The notes under the pieces: generated by a model
Databases searched by the model: none
Seen by the model: the letters and a program-made list of their open reading frames with translations, nothing else
What the model was told of the DNA's origin: nothing
Assembly: GCA_965248475.1 (NCBI GenBank)
Contig: OZ252106.1
Coordinates: 1,775,640 to 1,839,639 of the forward strand
Direction of reading: 5' to 3'
Length of the DNA stretch: 64,000 nucleotides
DNA from: Dehalococcoidia bacterium
GTDB taxonomy: Bacteria > Chloroflexota > Dehalococcoidia > Lucifugimonadales > G965248475
Program-made: the position numbers and the translations under genes
Shown here: piece by piece, positions 23,317 to 31,742 of the stretch
How positions within the stretch are numbered: position 1 is the first letter of the stretch
Layout: each line of letters begins with the position of its first letter

Positions 23317-24876
23317 TTGAAAGCCATCCTAAGCGTCTACGACAAGACCGGCCTGGTGGAGTTCGCACGGGCCATACAGGGACAGGGCTACGAGCTGGTC
23401 AGCACCGGCGGTACCCACCGGGACCTGTCCCAGGTAGGGTTGAACGTCCAGCAGGTGTCAGAACTCACAGGCTTTCCTGAGATCATGGACGGCCGGGTGA
23501 AGACGCTCCACCCCAAGGTACACGGCGGTATCCTGGCCCGCAGGCAGCTAGCCGCGGACCTGGCCCAGATGTCAGAGCACGGCATCGAAGCGATCGACCT
23601 TGTGGCGGGCAACCTCTACCCCTTCCGTAACACGGTCGCACGCCCCGGCGTAGAGCTGAACGAGGCGCTGGAGAACATCGACATCGGTGGGCCGACACTG
23701 ATCCGTGCCGCCGCCAAGAACTTCCCACACGTAATCGTAGTCGTCGACCCGGCGGATTATACGTGGATATCGGAACGCGTGGCCGGCGGCGGCCTGTCCC
23801 AGGATGAGCGAAAGGCACTGTCCGCAAAGGCATTCCAGCACGTCGCTCACTATGACACCATGGTCGCCGAATACCTGCGCGACGATGGCAACCTGCTCCC
23901 ACAGCAGCTTACCGCCGGCATGACGCGAGTCCAGGAGCTGCGGTATGGCGAGAACCCCCACCAGCGGGGCGCCTTCTACACGCTGGACTCGGTGCGTACA
24001 CCCGTAGAGGGCATCGGCGACTACACTCAGCACCACGGCAAGGCTATGTCCTACGTCAACATCCTTGACGCCGACGCCGCCTTCAACCTGGTGGCTGACT
24101 TCCCTGAGCCCGCCGTTGCCATCATCAAGCACACCAACCCCTGCTGCTTCGCCACCGGAACGGGCGACATCGCCGCGCTCTACCGGCAGGCATTGAGCGA
24201 AGGTGACGCCGTCTCTGCATACGGCGGCATCGTAGCCACCAACCGGCCCATCGATATGGAATACGCCAAGGCACTGCGCGAGATGCTGAGCCCCATCACC
24301 GGCGACCGCATGTTCTTCGAAATCGTCATCGCCCCCGGCTCGGAGTCCGACGGTCTGGACCACCTCAAGAAGAAGTCACGAGACCTGCGAATACTGACCG
24401 CGCCGCTGGGCGACCCGTCGCAGTCGCGTCTGGAGTTCCGGGGCATCCGCGGCGGCGTGCTGGTGCACGAGGCCGATGTCTCCCAAGATGAGGGTTTCAA
24501 GGTGGTCACCAGGCACCAGCCCTCTGAGGAGGAGATGGCAGATGCCAGCGCGGCCTGGCTGGTATGCAAACACGTCAAGTCCAACGCAATCGTACTGGTC
24601 AAGGACGGCGTGCTCATCGGCATGGGGGCCGGACAGCCCAACCGCGTGACCAGCGTTCGACTGGCCGCCCAGGGGGCCGGCGAGCGTTCAAAGGGCGCCA
24701 TCCTGGCGTCCGACGCCATGTTCCCGTTTGCTGACAACGTGGAGGAGGCGGCCCAGGCCGGCGTCAGCGCCATCGTCCAGCCCGGCGGCTCCATCCGCGA
24801 CGAAGAGATCATAGAGGCTGCCGACAAGCTGGGCGTGTCCATGATGTTCACCGGCGTCCGCCACTTCCGGCACTAG
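23317..24876 (+). CDS. purH: bifunctional AICAR transformylase / IMP cyclohydrolase
   Basis: 519 aa with MGS-like N-terminus (SVYDKTGL, KTLHPKVHGGILARR) and an AICARFT C-terminus. TTG start with a purine-rich RBS. Confidence 0.95.
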   Translation: MKAILSVYDKTGLVEFARAIQGQGYELVSTGGTHRDLSQVGLNVQQVSELTGFPEIMDGRVKTLHPKVHGGILARRQLAADLAQMSEHGIEAIDLVAGNLYPFRNTVARPGVELNEALENIDIGGPTLIRAAAKNFPHVIVVVDPADYTWISERVAGGGLSQDERKALSAKAFQHVAHYDTMVAEYLRDDGNLLPQQLTAGMTRVQELRYGENPHQRGAFYTLDSVRTPVEGIGDYTQHHGKAMSYVNILDADAAFNLVADFPEPAVAIIKHTNPCCFATGTGDIAALYRQALSEGDAVSAYGGIVATNRPIDMEYAKALREMLSPITGDRMFFEIVIAPGSESDGLDHLKKKSRDLRILTAPLGDPSQSRLEFRGIRGGVLVHEADVSQDEGFKVVTRHQPSEEEMADASAAWLVCKHVKSNAIVLVKDGVLIGMGAGQPNRVTSVRLAAQGAGERSKGAILASDAMFPFADNVEEAAQAGVSAIVQPGGSIRDEEIIEAADKLGVSMMFTGVRHFRH

Positions 24877-24884
24877 GGACGGTA

Positions 24885-24901
24885 CCTGGGCATTGCCCAG
24901 G
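24885..24901 (+). terminator. candidate terminator hairpin after purH
   Basis: cctgggc-att-gcccagg hairpin 9 nt after the stop, followed by a weak T-containing tail. Confidence 0.35.
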
Positions 24902-24952
24902 CCCATATTTCCCATCCACATCAATAGCTAACCTTGTTATCGGGCTTCGGAG

Positions 24953-24979
24953 ACATGTGGGTGCAGGGCACACCGTGCC
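24953..24979 (+). repeat. REP-like palindrome family B, degenerate copy
   Basis: acatgtgggtgcagggcacaccgtgcc. It shares the ATGTGGGTGCAGGGCAC arm with the other copies. Confidence 0.7.
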
Positions 24980-25037
24980 GAATGCCATTCTCCATTGAAG
25001 CAGGTGGACCATCGCAGAGGGCTATACTGTCATTGAT

Positions 25038-26525
25038 ATGGTTCACAACACGCTCCCACAGCTTTCCAAATCGCGATTCGGAGCCGGCCTACAGTGCTTA
25101 AAACGGCTCTATTTGGAATGCTACTCGCGTGAGCTGGCGGACCCCATTGATCCGAGTCAGCAGGCGCTTTTCGACTCTGGGACCGCTGTCGGAGAACTGG
25201 CCAGGCAACGGTTCCCCAGAGGCCGCCTCATTGCGGAACAGTACTTCGAACACTCCCGCGCGGAGGCGACCACTTCAGATGCTATCGCTGACCCGCTCGT
25301 ATCCGCCATCTACGAAGCGGCGTTTACCTTCGAGCGTATCCGGGTCAGGATAGATGTACTCAGTCGCAATAGTGGGGATACATTCGATCTGGCGGAGGTC
25401 AAATCCAGCACAGGCGTGAAGACGGAGCATATCGCAGACGCTGCGATCCAACTGCATGTAGTGGAAGGTTCCAGTATACCTGTACGGACAGTTTCCCTGG
25501 TACATATCGATAACAGCTATGTCTACGAAGGCGGCCCGTATGACCTGAGCAAGCTGTTCCATCTGGAGGACATAACTGACCAGGCGCGCACTTACTTGGC
25601 CTCCATACAAGGCTTGCTAGCTGAGATGTGGGAAATGCTGCGGCAAGACGAATCGCCCGGCGTTGAGATCGGATCCCAGTGCACCAGGCCTTACCAGTGC
25701 CCATTCTACGGCTACTGCCGACAGGACTCACCGGAACACCACATTGAGCAGCTCCCACGGGCCAGGCCGGAGCTCATGGAAAGGCTACGTACAGCCGGTG
25801 TCTTCGACATCAGCAAGATTCCTCTCGATTTTCCAACGCTGTCAGAAACCCAACAGCGCGTCCGAGATGCCGTAGCTACAGGCCAGCCATATATCGGCCC
25901 AGAGCTATCCGCTGAACTCGCACAGGCCACCTATCCACTGCATTTCCTGGACTTCGAGACGTTCAACCCAGCACTCCCGGCGTACTCTGGGACCCGCCCA
26001 TATCAGATAATCCCCTTCCAATGGTCGCTACACGTGCGAGACTCCGCGGGCAACCTCACCCATAACTCGTTCCTGCATGACGGGGACGGAGACCCACGCG
26101 ACGCCTTCGCCACAAGCCTCCTTGACGCCATAGGATCAGAGGGGTCAATCGTAGTCTACTCTGGCTACGAGCAGACAGTGATAAAGCGCCTGGCTGAAGA
26201 GTTCCCCCAGTATAGGAACCCCCTGTTGGCGCTATGCGACCGGCTGTTCGATCTCCTGGCTATCATAAGGTCTCACTACTACCACCCGGAGTTCCACGGT
26301 AGCTACTCCATCAAGTCAGTGCTCCCGGCCCTGGTTCCCGACCTGACGTACAGCGACCTTGAGATACGGGATGGCTCGAACGCATCGGTTGCATTCGCTC
26401 AGTTGATTGCGCCTGACACGGAGGAGCCTGAGCGGGAGCGGATCAGGAATGCGCTGTTGGATTACTGCAAGATGGATACGCTGGCAATGGTCGGGCTTAT
26501 GGACACGCTTCAAGGAGGACGCTAA
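25038..26525 (+). CDS. DUF2779-like protein: Cas4/RecB-like PD-(D/E)XK nuclease N-domain plus DEDD-like exonuclease C-domain
   Basis: LSKSRFGAGLQC N-terminus, IDVL...LAEVK nuclease motif and a Cys cluster (CTRPYQCPFYGYC). FLDFET, YSGYE and YCKMDT resemble RNase H-fold exonuclease motifs. Confidence 0.75.
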   Translation: MVHNTLPQLSKSRFGAGLQCLKRLYLECYSRELADPIDPSQQALFDSGTAVGELARQRFPRGRLIAEQYFEHSRAEATTSDAIADPLVSAIYEAAFTFERIRVRIDVLSRNSGDTFDLAEVKSSTGVKTEHIADAAIQLHVVEGSSIPVRTVSLVHIDNSYVYEGGPYDLSKLFHLEDITDQARTYLASIQGLLAEMWEMLRQDESPGVEIGSQCTRPYQCPFYGYCRQDSPEHHIEQLPRARPELMERLRTAGVFDISKIPLDFPTLSETQQRVRDAVATGQPYIGPELSAELAQATYPLHFLDFETFNPALPAYSGTRPYQIIPFQWSLHVRDSAGNLTHNSFLHDGDGDPRDAFATSLLDAIGSEGSIVVYSGYEQTVIKRLAEEFPQYRNPLLALCDRLFDLLAIIRSHYYHPEFHGSYSIKSVLPALVPDLTYSDLEIRDGSNASVAFAQLIAPDTEEPERERIRNALLDYCKMDTLAMVGLMDTLQGGR

Positions 26526-27283
26526 TGTCAGCCTTCATTGATTACCTGCGGTCATTCAACAGAAAGGAGAGGTTCTTACTCGTTGGCAGGGCTCTCGGCA
26601 ATCGGGACTTTCAGCTAGGTAAATCGTTCCGCCAGCAACTCGGTGATCGCTTCGCCCTGGATGTGCCTTCAAACGCGTTTGTGGCCATGGACTACCATCT
26701 GGACTGGATCTATGCTAGCGCCTACTTGAGCCAGGAGGGGGTTAACGCCTCGGGCGTACATCCGAATGCGGCGGGACTTGTGTCCGGCAACCAGGAAGAT
26801 GTGGACCTGATCGTAGCGTTCGACGCGGGCGAGACTACTCATCTCATCATGCTTGAGGCCAAGGCTGAGACGGGCTGGACGAAAAAGCAAACGGATTCCA
26901 AAGTGAAGCGCCTGACCGCGATATTCGGGAAAGAGAGTAATACCTTCCCTCAGTTGCAGCCTCGCTTCGGTCTGATGTCGCCTCGGCAGCCGAGCCGCCT
27001 CAAGGCTGACTACTGGCCCTCATGGATGCGGTCCCCGGAGGGCGGCCCGCTGTGGATGAAGCTCGCATTTCCGCCTGGCCGAAGGAAGCCGACCAGGTGG
27101 GACAACGACTCTGACAAGCAGAGCAAGAATGGCGACTACTTCAAGGTTGAATCGACCGACAAGAAGCAGAAATATACGGAGCCTGCTGGTCGTCCAACTC
27201 GCCTTTGCCATGGTCGTACTTCCCTACGGCATACCCCACCGTTTACCAGTTCTGGCCCAACGGCGAGTCCAATTACCCGTTAG
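26525..27283 (+). CDS. hypothetical protein with PD-(D/E)XK-like motif, translationally coupled to DUF2779 gene
   Basis: TAATG stop/start overlap. The core EDVDLIVAFD...HLIMLEAK fits a D...ExK restriction-endonuclease-like motif. The C-terminal tail is low complexity. Confidence 0.5.
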   Translation: MSAFIDYLRSFNRKERFLLVGRALGNRDFQLGKSFRQQLGDRFALDVPSNAFVAMDYHLDWIYASAYLSQEGVNASGVHPNAAGLVSGNQEDVDLIVAFDAGETTHLIMLEAKAETGWTKKQTDSKVKRLTAIFGKESNTFPQLQPRFGLMSPRQPSRLKADYWPSWMRSPEGGPLWMKLAFPPGRRKPTRWDNDSDKQSKNGDYFKVESTDKKQKYTEPAGRPTRLCHGRTSLRHTPPFTSSGPTASPITR

Positions 27284-27294
27284 GCCAAACTGGT

Positions 27295-28041
27295 ATGCTG
27301 AGACCCATGCGAACCTTTGGATTACTATTCCTTCTCCTGTCCGCGCTAGTTTTTGCGCTAACTGCATGCGGTGAAGAGAGAGGATATCCAGAGGGCACGG
27401 ACCAACAAGGGAGTCCGGTTTCCCAGGGGCCACCTCCACAACCGGACACCTATCCTGAGGTGTGGTCCAGCAATGGATACGATGGATAGACCTACGAATT
27501 CAAGGTGAACTGCTTTGGGGAGTTCGATACCCTAGAGACCTGTTTTCTGTTTGACCTGACCAGGGTGACCGTCGTAGACCCGGAGGGCACCGAATTCGAT
27601 CTGAACAAGGACTTCAACATCAACACCTTTTCGGGTGAGGTCACCAGGAGATGGGTCCTCTACGGGCCACCGGCTCAAGGTCTGCCGCTACCCGGTGAAT
27701 ACCGTTTCCAGTACTACCGCGATGCGGAGCTCATGCGTGAGCAGACCGTTGAGTACGAACCCGAGGTTGCCGATTATCCACGAAACGTATCCTGGTACAG
27801 AGATGGGAATGACCTGGTTGTAAGTTGGGATCCGCCAGAGGGCGTGAAGACTGGCATGTGGTACAAAGTCCTGGTATTCCCGGAAGCCAGGGAGCTCATA
27901 AGCCTCCAGTTCGACTGGGACGTGAATGAAGCGCGCCTGGAAAATGTTCCCCTTGAAGACGGCGACCAGGCAGAGTTAAATGTCGCCATATTCTTTAGTG
28001 GCGGATACGCCTACTCCGAAAATTCCCCGCTGACGTGGTAG
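27295..28041 (+). pseudogene. lipoprotein gene interrupted by an in-frame TAG (27487-27489)
   Basis: A signal peptide with lipobox (LTAC) is followed by 65 aa, then a TAG. The same frame continues 178 aa with no RBS before the GTG at 27505. Confidence 0.5.
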
Positions 28042-28796
28042 GAGGTCCAGCAAGGACCATGATATCCAAGCCCTCCATTGACATAGTCATCCCCGTCCTC
28101 AACGAGGAGCGGGCCCTACCCCACTGTGTGGTAACCCTCCGGCACTTCCTTATCGATGCCATCCCTAACCCGTGGCGCATCGTCATCGCTGACAACGGCT
28201 CCGACGACTCTACGCCGAGGGTGGGACGCAGCCTGGCAGACCAGCATCCGGACGTGGCCTACCTGCGACTGGAGCAGCGGGGACGCGGACGGGCCCTGCG
28301 CCGCGCCTGGCTGGAGAGTCAGGCGGACCTGGTCAGCTACATGGACGTGGACCTGTCCACAGACCTGAGCGCCTTCCCACCCCTCGTCCAGGCCCTGGAG
28401 GACGGGTATGACCTGGCCATTGGCTCCCGGCTGGCTAAGGAATCGACGGTGCGACTGCGCTCCCTCAAACGGGAGGTCATCTCCCGAAGCTACAACCTGC
28501 TCATCAAGGCGATGTTCTTCACCGGGTTCAGCGATGCCCAGTGCGGGTTCAAGGGCATGACCAGCGCCGCTGCGCGGACACTGTTGCCCCACGTACAGGA
28601 CCAGGGCTGGTTCTTTGATACGGAGCTTCTCATCCTGGCCGAGAAGCGGGAGTTCCGCATAGTGGACGTCCCAGTGACCTGGACGGACGACCCGGACACG
28701 CGGGTGAAGGTAGTGCGCACGGCCTTGGACGACTTGAAGGGCCTGCTGCGACTGCGGTTCGGAGGACTGCCCCGAGTGGAGCGGCCAACCGGCTGA
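28035..28796 (+). CDS. family 2 glycosyltransferase (dolichyl-phosphate glycosyltransferase-like)
   Basis: DIVIPVLNEE, ADNGSDD and DVDLS motifs. An alternative ATG start is at 28059. Confidence 0.85.
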   Translation: MVGGPARTMISKPSIDIVIPVLNEERALPHCVVTLRHFLIDAIPNPWRIVIADNGSDDSTPRVGRSLADQHPDVAYLRLEQRGRGRALRRAWLESQADLVSYMDVDLSTDLSAFPPLVQALEDGYDLAIGSRLAKESTVRLRSLKREVISRSYNLLIKAMFFTGFSDAQCGFKGMTSAAARTLLPHVQDQGWFFDTELLILAEKREFRIVDVPVTWTDDPDTRVKVVRTALDDLKGLLRLRFGGLPRVERPTG

Positions 28797-28853
28797 TTCC
28801 CAGCGCCGCGGAGTAGGTGTCGGGGAGCACCACAGCAATCCCCTTCTGGCTAG

Positions 28854-30332
28854 TTAATCCTTCCCCAGCAAGTACCGGAGCACGTCTGCCGCTGTATAAC
28901 ACCCTTCGTCACTGTCAATTAGATCGTGAATGAACTCTGTACTGCGGCCTAGCGTCACAATCGGGAGCTCCGCACCATCTTTGCGCTTCTGTCCTAACCC
29001 AACTGTGGCAAGAAGCCCGTTGCATAGGCACTTCCTTCCTATAGTGTCTTCAAACTTGCCACCCCGGTTTAGATATGTATTCTCGGGTTCAGACGGGCAA
29101 CGGAACGAAACCTTTCCATGTTCATTCTTGTATGCGTGTCTCAGATAGCCAAGGTCACAAATCCTCGTCCTTGAATCGAAGACTTCTACTTCAGACATGG
29201 TGTCTGGCAGTTGCGCCACATTAAAAGGGAATCCGGAGGAAGAGCCAACGGCGTCCACCACCACATTGAGCTCTTTCCTGTAAGCTTGACCCCTTAATTC
29301 CTGTTTAATATCTGCTCTTAGTCCGGACTCTTCGCAAAGCGCAAATATGGTCCCAAGCTGACATCCAGTAGCGCCCTCTGCCAGCGCTTCCTTAATTTTT
29401 CCCGGATGGGCATTTGAACCGGCCAGCCAGAAAGGCCTTCCCAGCTCCCGCATCTTATCTAGATCGGCAATATCCTTTTCACCGTAAATCGGCTCCCCTA
29501 GATCATTGAAGGTTGGCCTACCTCTTGGAGGTGCGTTGTGACCTCCAGCAGTTGGACCTTCCACTATGAACCCATCTACCCATCCCGTGGTTCTTCGAGG
29601 GTCGCACAGAAACTGCGCAAGAACATGGGTGGCGACTATGGCAAAGAAGTTCGGCCTTTTCAACTGTTCAATGTATCTTTCAGGCACGAGAGAGGCGGGG
29701 TCAAGAGCCATTGCGAACTCTTTAGACTCTGCACCTTCAACATCCAGGTAGTAAGAGGCGGGTTCGTAAGCGGCAAACCTATCCAGCACGCCCGGGACCT
29801 GGTGGGGAATCCCCGCTCCCATCAGGATAACGTCTACTCCCGCCATCATCGCTCCCAGCATTTCAGGTAGGCGAGGGGTTTGTATTTTCTCCAGATAGTT
29901 TATGCCGACTAGACCATCGTGACCTTGCTTCGCCAACCAAACTTCAGCAAAGTTGCTGCAAAGGATGAGTTCAGCGATGTCATTCCTCATTACATGATTG
30001 ATCATAGGGCTGGGTTTGTAGGGCCTATCTTCAGGTATTCCACCTTCAACGTACCAGTTACGCCAGACCCGATCCGCCAATTCCTGATAGGGAAAAGCAT
30101 CCAGGGCTTTGCGGAAATACCCCCCAGGGTCACCCTCTTGCAGTTGCCTGGCGAACACGGTATCTATACCGGTTCCGGAAACCACACCCATCGTCTCCAC
30201 ACCCAGCCGTCCTCCGGCTGAGGCTACGGCATTAGCCAACTGCCAGTTGGAAACCCTGACTCCCATGCCGCCTTGTATTAGAAGCGGGAATCGGGAATGA
30301 TCCCCGGATTTTCTCTCAGAAGTCGGATTCAT
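28854..30332 (-). CDS. nitronate monooxygenase / NPD-like FMN oxidoreductase (long form)
   Basis: LIQGGMGVRVSNWQLANAVASAGG N-terminal motif and EGPTAGGH FMN-binding motif. Codon usage is visibly more A+T-rich than in neighbouring genes. Confidence 0.75.
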   Translation of the reverse strand: MNPTSERKSGDHSRFPLLIQGGMGVRVSNWQLANAVASAGGRLGVETMGVVSGTGIDTVFARQLQEGDPGGYFRKALDAFPYQELADRVWRNWYVEGGIPEDRPYKPSPMINHVMRNDIAELILCSNFAEVWLAKQGHDGLVGINYLEKIQTPRLPEMLGAMMAGVDVILMGAGIPHQVPGVLDRFAAYEPASYYLDVEGAESKEFAMALDPASLVPERYIEQLKRPNFFAIVATHVLAQFLCDPRRTTGWVDGFIVEGPTAGGHNAPPRGRPTFNDLGEPIYGEKDIADLDKMRELGRPFWLAGSNAHPGKIKEALAEGATGCQLGTIFALCEESGLRADIKQELRGQAYRKELNVVVDAVGSSSGFPFNVAQLPDTMSEVEVFDSRTRICDLGYLRHAYKNEHGKVSFRCPSEPENTYLNRGGKFEDTIGRKCLCNGLLATVGLGQKRKDGAELPIVTLGRSTEFIHDLIDSDEGCYTAADVLRYLLGKD

Positions 30333-30807
30333 GATGAAGAGATACGTTGCCTAGCGTAGTCAGCCTCAAGTTTGTCTTGGTCAAAGAGCCGTGCAAATCA
30401 AAAGTCTCAGAATAAGGATATCGAGAAAAGACTTCTTGATTAAGGACGCCACTGTGCCAGGATAGCCGAACATTCCTGACACATACTGCATGCCCCGTGT
30501 GCTGACTCCTTAGGTTAAATATGGTGGAGCAGATCAGTCAGCAGCGCGACGCAGGGAGGGGTCAAATAAATACGCTACAGATAATTCCTTTGCCGCGCCC
30601 ACTCATTATGGTGGGCTGCCTAATATGCAACACCGCACCAAGGATACCAGAAAACAGGGAGTCAGTGTGCTGCCATAGGCCTGGGGCGCATGCGTCCAGG
30701 GTTTCACAGCTCTTCCGCAGCCAACCGATACGTGCTGCGTGCGTGCAGAACGAAGCGCCGGGATAGTGTGACTCCCAATGGTCGGCATCAACCGAATTGC
30801 GCGGGAG

Positions 30808-31470
30808 CTACTTGCTGGGGTCTTTGACCTTCCTCAGATAAGGCTTGACGGTCTCCCATCCCTGAGGGAAAAGCTCCTTCGCTGCATCATTGTCCACCGC
30901 AGGCAGAATGATGACGTCTTCACCCTGTTTCCAATTCCCCGGAGTGGCCACTCTGTATTTCGCCGTCAACTGAACCGAATCGAGAACACGAAGCAGCTCG
31001 TCGAAATTACGGCCCGTGCTCATTGGGTAGGCAAGGCTCATTTTGACCGTTTTGTCAGGGGCTATCAGGAAAACCACACGTACCGTCTGGTTATCGCCCG
31101 CAGTCCTGCCTGCGGAGCTATCACCAACGTCAGCGGGCAACATATCATAGAGCTTGGCCACGCTGAGGTCTTCGTCGGCGATCAGGGGAAAGTTGAGCTT
31201 GGTCCCGGCGAGTTCCTCTATGTCAGTTGCCCATTTCAAATGGTCATCAACACGATCAACACTCAACCCAATAACCTTGCAGCCTCTCTTGGCGAACTCA
31301 CCGCTGAGTTGTGCTACGTAGCCTAGCTCGGTGGCACAAACGGGAGTGAAATCCTTTGGATGAGAGAACAACATCGCCCACCCGTCGCCCATCCATTCAT
31401 GGAACTTGACAGTTCCCAAGCTGGTGGCCGCAGTGAAATCTGGTGCCGTATCATTAATTCGTAGCGCCAT
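30808..31470 (-). CDS. 1-Cys peroxiredoxin (Prx6 type)
   Basis: APDFTA...WAMLFSHPKDFTPVCATELG signature; 220 aa. Confidence 0.92.
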   Translation of the reverse strand: MALRINDTAPDFTAATSLGTVKFHEWMGDGWAMLFSHPKDFTPVCATELGYVAQLSGEFAKRGCKVIGLSVDRVDDHLKWATDIEELAGTKLNFPLIADEDLSVAKLYDMLPADVGDSSAGRTAGDNQTVRVVFLIAPDKTVKMSLAYPMSTGRNFDELLRVLDSVQLTAKYRVATPGNWKQGEDVIILPAVDNDAAKELFPQGWETVKPYLRKVKDPSK

Positions 31471-31742
31471 TGACTTACGCCTCCTCCGTTAGGTCAGCAG
31501 GGACTAAGGCAATCTATAATACTGGAGCTACAGTTGAAAGTACATTGTCTAATGTGACGCAGGTTAGGTGCTGCCGCACCAAGCAAAGGGGCTGGATTTA
31601 CGGTCAAAGTACCATGCTTGATGGCGAGACCATCGAGATGGATCCACCTCATGGATTCGTGATATACCACGAAGAATGGACACACCGGGTAGAGAACATC
31701 GGCACGGCAGACCTGAAGGCAATCGTCGTAGAAAGCAAGTAG
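31470..31742 (+). pseudogene. possible cupin-domain remnant
   Basis: Only the C-terminal 45 aa (ETIEMDPPHGFVIYHEEWTHRVENIGTADLKAIVVE) look cupin-like. The N-terminal part is low quality and has no RBS. Confidence 0.25.

Follow-up and report, generated by a model that had tools for sequence, protein, structure and literature searches.

A mobile gene pair encoding a predicted DUF2779 dual nuclease and an unnamed PD-(D/E)XK-like protein in a Dehalococcoidia genome

Results

A DUF2779 gene and a gene of an unnamed family overlap by one base

We analyzed a 64,000-nucleotide stretch (hereafter the window) of the genome of a Dehalococcoidia bacterium (assembly GCA_965248475.1, contig OZ252106.1, positions 1,775,640 to 1,839,639 of the forward strand). 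Downstream of purH, this window carries two overlapping genes, which together we call the cassette (Table 1). Gene 1 encodes a 495-amino acid (aa) DUF2779 protein with two predicted nuclease domains, and gene 2 encodes a smaller protein of a widespread family that we read as a new member of the PD-(D/E)XK superfamily. The two genes are found side by side in several phyla, and gene 2 has repeatedly been lost from beside gene 1.

The TAA stop codon of gene 1 (26523-26525) shares its last A with the ATG start codon of gene 2 (26525-26527) to give the sequence TAATG. A GGAGG ribosome-binding site lies 6 nucleotides (nt) 5' of this ATG, still within the coding sequence of gene 1. Loci L141, L143, and L168 share the one-base overlap, and the geometry of the junction would be compatible with translational coupling. 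An earlier examination of this DNA, made from its letters without database searches (the sequence-only reading), had reported both open reading frames (ORFs), the TAATG junction, a repetitive extragenic palindromic (REP) repeat, and purH upstream, and we confirmed all of these, with both ORFs at the positions it gave. It had also described a cassette free of methylase, helicase, and ATPase genes; we likewise found none in the cassette, either in the ORF list or by family searches.

Gene 1 is a predicted Cas4/Exo5-type nuclease fused to a DEDDy exonuclease

Gene 1 matched the Pfam profile of DUF2779 (PF11074) over positions 1-126 of its 126 (E 2.6e-42, 144.5 bits against a cut-off of 23.3), in agreement with the family assignment made from sequence. 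Other profile matches were weaker: RNase_H_2 of Pfam (E 1.9e-4), Cas4 models only in PADLOC (best E 1.7e-5), and sub-threshold TM0106 RecB-like and UU173 matches in NCBIfam. A Cas4/Exo5-like PD-(D/E)XK domain with a four-cysteine cluster occupies residues ~1-235, and a DEDDy RNase H-fold exonuclease domain occupies residues ~296-495. Across 38 DUF2779 homologs, D106 (of the motif IDVL), E120 and K122 (AEVK), and Q138 were 100% conserved. Also invariant in this set were C20, C215, C221, and C227 in the first domain and D305/E307 (FLDFET), E378 (YSGYE), and Y476/D480 (YCKMDT) in the second, and the motifs quoted in the sequence-only reading all fall on such conserved positions. A 29-sequence alignment again showed these positions to be conserved.

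The AlphaFold2 model of gene 1, built with 29 homologs, had a predicted local distance difference test score (pLDDT) of 90.1 and a predicted template modeling score of 0.85. In Foldseek searches, the N-terminal half matched Cas4 (8d3l, E 1.6e-4; 4ic1; 4r5q), Exo5, and AdnA, each at a probability of 1.00; the structures matched included human Exo5 (7lw9), the AdnA nuclease domain, 9np6, and lambda exonuclease. The C-terminal half matched RNase H-fold proteins. Taken together, the conserved residues and the model mark gene 1 as a clear DUF2779 protein, predicted to join a Cas4/Exo5-type nuclease with a putative Fe-S cluster to a DEDDy 3'-5' exonuclease. This dual-nuclease architecture of DUF2779 is already known in silico. 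Majorek et al. placed PF11074 among 3'-5' exonucleases with a fused PD-(D/E)XK domain (PMC3985635), and a 2026 analysis of JCVI-syn3.0 described the quasi-essential protein MMSYN1_0389 as a Cas4-like and DEDDy fusion (PMC13621843).

The Cas1 profile (PF01867), which did match control genomes, had no match in this genome (a single contig of 2.4 Mb, 93% complete); we therefore regard gene 1 as a "solo" Cas4-like enzyme. Solo DUF2779 genes of Dehalococcoidia had no conserved neighbors except through synteny within a family. In one such family (L114, L122, and L128), the solo DUF2779 gene adjoins a gene for an ADP-ribosylglycohydrolase-like protein that we recognized by eye. These three genomes are related, and the adjacency may therefore be plain synteny.

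Gene 2 belongs to a large unnamed family with a PD-(D/E)XK-like motif and predicted fold

Even at E ≤ 1, searches of Pfam, NCBIfam, PADLOC, and PHROGs gave no match for gene 2, in line with the earlier remark that it resembled no recognized family, and a profile of its own family had no match among PDB sequences at E ≤ 10. We nevertheless found many relatives: a single-sequence query retrieved 937 homologs, and a profile retrieved 2,340. An exhaustive HMMER scan resolved the family into 1,073 clusters at 50% identity, and its members occur in GTDB genomes of at least 11 phyla. They are ~210 aa long and share 40-77% identity with the window protein. When we widened the profile search to 5.8 billion proteins, we recovered core family members only, plus one fusion to a GIY-YIG domain, and the 72,556 plasmids and 50,697 phages that we searched with tblastn gave no match.

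D56, D94, E111, and K113 were invariant in alignments of both 20 and 26 homologs; the last three residues form the DVDL...LEAK motif that had been singled out from the sequence. E15 was invariant in the smaller alignment and at least 90% conserved in the larger one, and N12, K14, R16, Y57, H58, W61, A112, K126, S152, P153, and W167 were invariant in both. The conserved residues of gene 2 therefore follow the E...D...D...ExK pattern known from restriction-endonuclease-like enzymes. For gene 2, AlphaFold2 gave a model with a mean pLDDT of 84.4 that was confident for residues 1-214, with strands at residues 52-58, 92-101, 104-112, and 144-152 and helices in between. Its weak structural matches in the PDB were almost all PD-(D/E)XK enzymes: Cap4, MspJI, cap-snatching endonucleases, and the R2 endonuclease, followed by PaqCI, McrC, BamHI, Can2, and FokI. 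Weak matches among viral models were to UL24, "PD-(D/E)XK nuclease", and "restriction endonuclease". From the motif and the predicted fold, we read gene 2 as a new family within the PD-(D/E)XK superfamily. We considered whether it might be a diverged copy of the Cas4-like domain of gene 1 and rejected this idea; the hhalign probability was 0.3%, and only the D...ExK motifs aligned.

The sequence-only reading had counted three nuclease-type modules in the pair, and the predicted structures agree with this count to differing degrees. The confident model of gene 1 matches nuclease folds in both halves (Cas4/Exo5/AdnA and RNase H), but the model of gene 2, though also confident, has weak fold matches only, nearly all to PD-(D/E)XK enzymes.

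Gene 2 and DUF2779 recur side by side in four phyla

We took the 80 best GTDB loci of gene 2 as a linkage sample and looked for DUF2779 within 6 kb. A DUF2779 gene lay beside gene 2 in 12 of the 80 loci, distributed over Chloroflexota, Myxococcota, Ignavibacteriota, and Bacteroidota, a frequency far above chance. DUF2779 was also the most frequent immediate neighbor of gene 2 (9 of 114). Both gene orders were observed: gene 1 precedes gene 2 in L008, L009, L015, and L041 and follows it in L002, L003, L005, L032, and L040, with a remnant of the latter arrangement in L074. The two genes are divergent in L011 and L021. Overlaps of 4 nt join the genes in L003, L005, L032, and L040. The linked state is spread over the gene 2 tree (9 changes), where one clade with 97% support holds both gene orders; on the DUF2779 tree, the linked copies gather in two clades.

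Linkage is accompanied by movement of the pair as a whole. The closest metagenomic relatives (P0003 and P0008, 72-75% identical) have the same one-base overlap in unrelated contexts with many transposase and integrase genes. When L143 was compared at the DNA level with the window and with L141, similarity was confined to the two genes (25015-27166), and the flanks were unrelated. The GC content of the cassette is 0.56-0.58, against 0.62-0.66 for purH. Past purH, the window has no synteny with the genome whose PurH is nearest to its own (G406, 71% identical).

We also noted two cases of duplicate copies in Dehalococcoidia. Two contigs of one metagenome-assembled genome (L002 and L003) each carry a gene 2-then-DUF2779 pair, with ~82-83% DNA identity between the pairs, which could reflect paralogy, a strain mixture, or a binning artefact. 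In one genome, a 692-bp unit with gene 2 only is duplicated at 96% identity (L031 5952-6643 and L041 5952-6643). The unit comprises the gene 2 homolog with ~48 nt upstream and ~30 nt downstream of it, and the copies are 1.1 Mb apart. One copy adjoins a frameshifted DUF2779 gene, and fragments of a tyrosine-recombinase gene are duplicated nearby at different offsets.

Gene 2 has other partners and a mixed neighborhood

The immediate, second, and third neighbors of gene 2 are mostly ordinary metabolic genes. Among the 114 immediate neighbors, only a few looked defense-like in a PADLOC search: one HEC-01A (in a Desulfobacterales locus), three UvrD/GajB-like proteins, and three NYN proteins. Of the six Proteobacteria and Bacteroidota loci that we examined, five had defense-type neighbors, covering restriction-modification (RM), Dnd/Ssp-type, STAND-Mrr, and OLD-like ATPase genes. 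These neighbors were an Mrr-nSTAND3 protein in Aeromonas caviae, an OLD/AbiEii-like ATPase in A. veronii, a DUF4007 protein in Maribellus, an Eco57I/MmeI-type RM enzyme in Draconibacterium, and a DndB-like protein in Psychromonas; at the sixth locus, in Oceanospirillum, an MFS transporter lies beside gene 2. A defense-island setting is seen only in some Proteobacteria and Bacteroidota.

DUF6508 (PF20118, uncharacterized) is the second recurrent partner of gene 2 (L013, L019, L037, L043, L044, L050, L060, and L003). It is mostly convergent with gene 2 and just 3' of it, and it is fused N-terminally in one case (P0148). Almost all of these loci group in a single gene 2 clade of 21 members, which has no DUF2779. 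A homolog of ADP-ribosylglycohydrolase (blastp cluster 26) also lies beside gene 2 and DUF6508 in L037 and L060, and the L037 homolog is fused to a DSP-PTPase domain of the "Swiss Army Knife" type. In addition, NYN nucleases adjoin gene 2 in Binatia, UvrD/AddA-like helicase-nucleases recur beside it, and P0413 is a fusion of gene 2 to a LEM-3-like GIY-YIG nuclease.

Flanking genes and candidate control elements

The gene upstream of the cassette is purH (PF01808, E 1e-101); downstream lie an ORF with a lipobox, a family-2 glycosyltransferase (GT2) gene, and an NMO-like gene. GC content is mosaic over the two intervals that we profiled (24800-28100 and 28700-31700): it is ~0.62-0.66 in purH and the glycosyltransferase gene and 0.55-0.58 in the nuclease cassette and the lipoprotein gene, and it falls to 0.51-0.55 from the NMO-like gene onward.

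The REP pattern occurs in three copies in the window (at most three mismatches), against 0 expected. The copy between purH and gene 1 forms the left boundary of similarity to the syntenic relative L165, in which the blastn match begins at 24980. The sequence GCTATACTGTCA is kept in the window, L143, and L165, and the sequence farther upstream diverges. No Shine-Dalgarno sequence precedes gene 1, and its transcript may therefore be leaderless or near-leaderless. A scan of the locus for promoters and terminators found no consensus sites, and TATACT is put forward only tentatively as a -10-like hexamer.

Table 1. Positions of the cassette and of associated sequence features in the window
Feature	Position	Strand	Basis
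Gene 1, DUF2779 protein	25038-26525	+	PF11074, conserved catalytic residues, AlphaFold2 model
Gene 2, conserved core of 214 aa	26525-27166	+	Homologs, conserved residues, AlphaFold2 model
Gene 2, read-through tail (38 codons and new stop)	27167-27283	+	Alignment with L141 and L142
REP-type palindromic repeat copy, between purH and gene 1	24955-24980	+	Pattern count in the window
TATACT, -10-like hexamer 9 nt 5' of the gene 1 ATG	25023-25028	+	Conservation in relatives
GGAGG, ribosome-binding site of gene 2, inside the end of gene 1	26514-26518	+	Sequence reading
693-bp segment (nearly all of gene 2) absent from L165 and L166	26553-27245	+	blastn

A long imperfect hairpin (27243-27297) lies just 5' of the lipoprotein start and is kept in L165; its folding z score of -1.9 is not significant. 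The lipoprotein gene of the window has an in-frame TAG at 27487-27489, and syntenic L165 has CAG (Gln) at this codon and an intact ORF of 233 aa. A second TAG/CAG difference, at codon 27167-27169 in gene 2, lies within 320 nt of it. Each is a single C/T transition at the first position of its codon, and either may be a real mutation or a base-call error.

Discussion

A proposed mobile cassette of two loosely partnered nucleases

We propose that gene 1 and gene 2 form a mobile cassette of two nucleases that cooperate without being obligate partners, a reading to which we assign a probability of about 0.45. The pairing recurs in several phyla, yet it is optional and often lost, and we therefore favor a loose partnership over a fixed new system.

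Our analysis shows the predicted folds, the conserved catalytic residues, the overlapping junction, the recurrent adjacency, the movement of the cassette, and the deletions; from these we infer the activities of the two proteins, their order of action, their target, and any role in defense or repair as follows. The horizontally mobile cassette of ~2.15 kb would be transcribed as one unit. Gene 2 would most likely act as a metal-dependent endonuclease that makes the initial nick or break in target DNA, which may be foreign, damaged, modified, or branched. Gene 1 would then resect, destroy, or otherwise process the ends left by gene 2. It joins a predicted Fe-S PD-(D/E)XK nuclease to a DEDDy 3'-5' exonuclease and would therefore probably trim DNA ends of either polarity. 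The partnership would be facultative and modular: each gene would mostly act without the other, and gene 2 would also pair or fuse with DUF6508, NYN, and GIY-YIG proteins. In the lineage of the window, gene 2 would be under relaxed constraint and prone to repeated loss.

Evidence against a joint function and rival explanations

Several of our results weigh against this proposal. The remaining 68 of the 80 gene 2 loci (85%) have no DUF2779. In an even set of 401 genomes of the window's class, gene 2 is present in 26, DUF2779 in 62, and both in 5, against ~4 expected if the genes were independent; the two genes are adjacent in only 2 of these 5. Within this set, gene 2 is patchy in its distribution, multi-copy or fragmentary in some genomes, and present in none of those sampled from the window's own order. 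The Foldseek matches of gene 2 are all weak, with best E values of 1.5e-2 (PDB) and 1.4e-3 (BFVD) and template modeling scores of 0.2-0.3. The window copy of gene 2 has moreover lost its stop codon: codon 27167-27169 reads CAG, where L141 and L142 have TAG and TAA. Because the ancestral stop codon reads CAG in the window, the 38-aa tail is a product of read-through, and its residues (215-252) have pLDDT values below 50-60 and are predicted to be disordered. The extent of gene 2 in the sequence-only reading thus needs one correction: the conserved gene is 214 aa long. Finally, and most informatively, we compared the loci of seven genes closely related to gene 1 (76-86% identical): gene 2 was deleted, truncated, or absent in four of the seven, and gene 1 was intact.

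In L165/L166 (P0268, 86% identical protein), gene 2 is deleted beside an intact gene 1. These loci are syntenic with the window from 24980 past 30700, with the gene order DUF2779, lipoprotein, GT2, ABM, NMO. By blastn, L165 314-1884 corresponds to window 24980-26552, and L165 1917-3473 corresponds to window 27246-28802. Both loci keep ATGTCAGCATTCATTGATTACCTGCGG, the first nine codons (27 nt) of gene 2, which run into the 3' flank at a GGTC(A/G)T microhomology. Since L165 retains these 27 nt, a deletion occurred there rather than an insertion in the window. We had considered gene 2 as a mobile insertion of ~690 bp, given the 693-bp indel relative to L165 and the 692-bp unit of L031/L041, and the L165 remnant rules this out for the window. 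Gene 1 is likewise intact in L167 (81% identical), where gene 2 is deleted to a remnant of ~11 nt; in L168 (78% identical), where gene 2 is truncated to residues 1-121; and in L169 (76% identical), where gene 2 is absent. Conversely, L142 has gene 2 without gene 1. The dN/dS values within the clade are 0.14-0.27 for gene 1 and 0.30-0.55 for gene 2, which places both under purifying selection and is consistent with repeated loss of gene 2 under relaxed constraint. Judged from these sequence comparisons, the pair is ancestral to the clade of the window, and gene 2 is dispensable for gene 1 and under relaxed constraint.

These observations would be expected of two independent accessory nucleases that share a neighborhood through co-transfer in variable regions and have no joint function. 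Under that explanation, gene 2 could work by itself, for example as an endonuclease that depends on structure, damage, or modification, and gene 1 by itself as an end-processing exonuclease. The unlinked 85% of gene 2 loci, the lack of genome-level co-occurrence, the loss of gene 2 beside an intact gene 1, and the duplication of gene 2 alone as a 692-bp unit (L031 versus L041) all point this way, as does the finding that gene 2 is adjacent in only ~3% (2/62) of the DUF2779 genomes of the class. However, the two genes are adjacent in four phyla and in both orders; overlaps of 1 or 4 nt and an internal ribosome-binding site occur; and the chance of adjacency for genes found in ~6-15% of genomes is only ~1e-4. 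The pair also shifts between genomic contexts as a unit. On balance, we consider full independence the main rival, though somewhat unlikely. The proposal in the sequence-only reading that the two genes form one module is thus borne out in part: adjacency in 12 of 80 loci, four phyla, and both orders speaks for it, but the 68 unlinked loci, the co-occurrence of 5 versus ~4, and the deletions of gene 2 do not fit a fixed module.

A different possibility is that the pair serves repair or recombination of the cell's own DNA, with gene 2 as a structure- or lesion-specific endonuclease and DUF2779 carrying out helicase-independent end resection. The quasi-essential status of the DUF2779 homolog MMSYN1_0389 in JCVI-syn3.0 (PMC13621843) would fit such a role, and a 22-member DUF2779 clade tracks Dehalococcoidia families as if vertically inherited. 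The repair nucleases Exo5 and AdnA are fold relatives of gene 1; gene 2 directly follows an AddA-like helicase-nuclease in Pirellulales and has UvrD-type helicases among its neighbors, most of which are ordinary metabolic genes rather than defense genes. Yet the Pirellulales synteny comes from three related genomes only, the GC content of the cassette is below that of its flanks, and transposases lie nearby. Gene 2 is also patchy (26/401 class genomes, none of those sampled from the window's order), sometimes multi-copy or pseudogenized, and readily lost, a distribution that is therefore unlike that of a core repair factor. We judge a dedicated repair pair to be distinctly unlikely. A toxin-antitoxin or addiction pair, with a toxic nuclease neutralized by the other protein, would explain why the two overlapping genes form a compact cassette that moves between contexts. 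We regard it as highly improbable because each gene persists alone: gene 1 in L165/L167, gene 2 in L142, and each of them in most loci, with catalytic residues intact and no substitute partner. In addition, neither protein is antitoxin-like or has a DNA-binding regulator domain.

Implications

The sequence-only reading had also proposed a DNA-targeting module for defense or repair. Defense-type neighbors occur in only a handful of Proteobacteria and Bacteroidota loci, neighbors are mostly metabolic, and a defense role is not established. A bolder conjecture, which we rate as rather unlikely, is that gene 2 founds a widespread family of stand-alone PD-(D/E)XK endonucleases that serve as plug-in cutters of anti-phage or anti-plasmid systems with interchangeable partners, namely DUF2779, NYN, GIY-YIG, and DUF6508 with ADP-ribosylglycohydrolase. 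If so, DUF2779 with gene 2 would be a minimal defense system made of nucleases only, with neither methylase nor NTPase; and if the pair or gene 2 alone restricts phages or plasmids, either would be a compact nuclease-only defense module. Were the function instead in repair, it would give a first functional handle on DUF2779, whose member in the minimal cell JCVI-syn3.0 is quasi-essential.

For now, we see the finding as a solid gain in annotation and no surprise. What is new here is the recognition that gene 2 belongs to a large PD-(D/E)XK-like family without a name, its recurrent yet optional coupling to DUF2779, and the direct evidence that it is repeatedly lost. Naming this family, which is missing from Pfam, NCBIfam, PADLOC, and PHROGs, and pointing out its conserved nuclease signature would better annotate thousands of "hypothetical proteins". 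The close relatives of the window, in which gene 1 stands beside a full gene 2, a truncated one, or none, also constitute a natural experiment indicating that the partnership is dispensable.

Comparison with known systems

Gene 1 is a full-length member of DUF2779/PF11074 (MMSYN1_0389; family F.17 in the RNase H-like classification) and has the same domain fusion (PMC3985635, PMC13621843). It shares the conserved D/E/K and DEDD-Y residues of the family; however, it keeps all four Cas4-type cysteines, whereas Mycoplasma DUF2779 keeps two. It also differs from other DUF2779 genes in being followed by a small overlapping nuclease gene, an adjacency seen in only 2 of the 62 DUF2779 genomes of the class. 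Gene 1 resembles solo Cas4, Exonuclease 5, and AdnA-AddB in fold, four-cysteine cluster, and D...ExK...Q motifs. Unlike Cas4, Exo5, and AdnA, it carries an extra C-terminal exonuclease and has no CRISPR context, helicase partner, or motor domain. Among the defense systems of PADLOC-DB v2, gene 1 matched weak Cas4 models only, and gene 2 had no match.

Gene 2 resembles PD-(D/E)XK enzymes such as Cap4, MspJI, McrC, BamHI, and the bunyaviral cap-snatching endonuclease in having D...ExK on consecutive predicted strands, together with the conserved upstream acidic residues E15 and D56. In contrast to the described PD-(D/E)XK families, it has no profile match and no sensor, methylase, or specificity domain. 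Its own features are an N-terminal FNRKERF helix and a beta-rich C-terminal part with SPR, WPxWM, and TRCD motifs.

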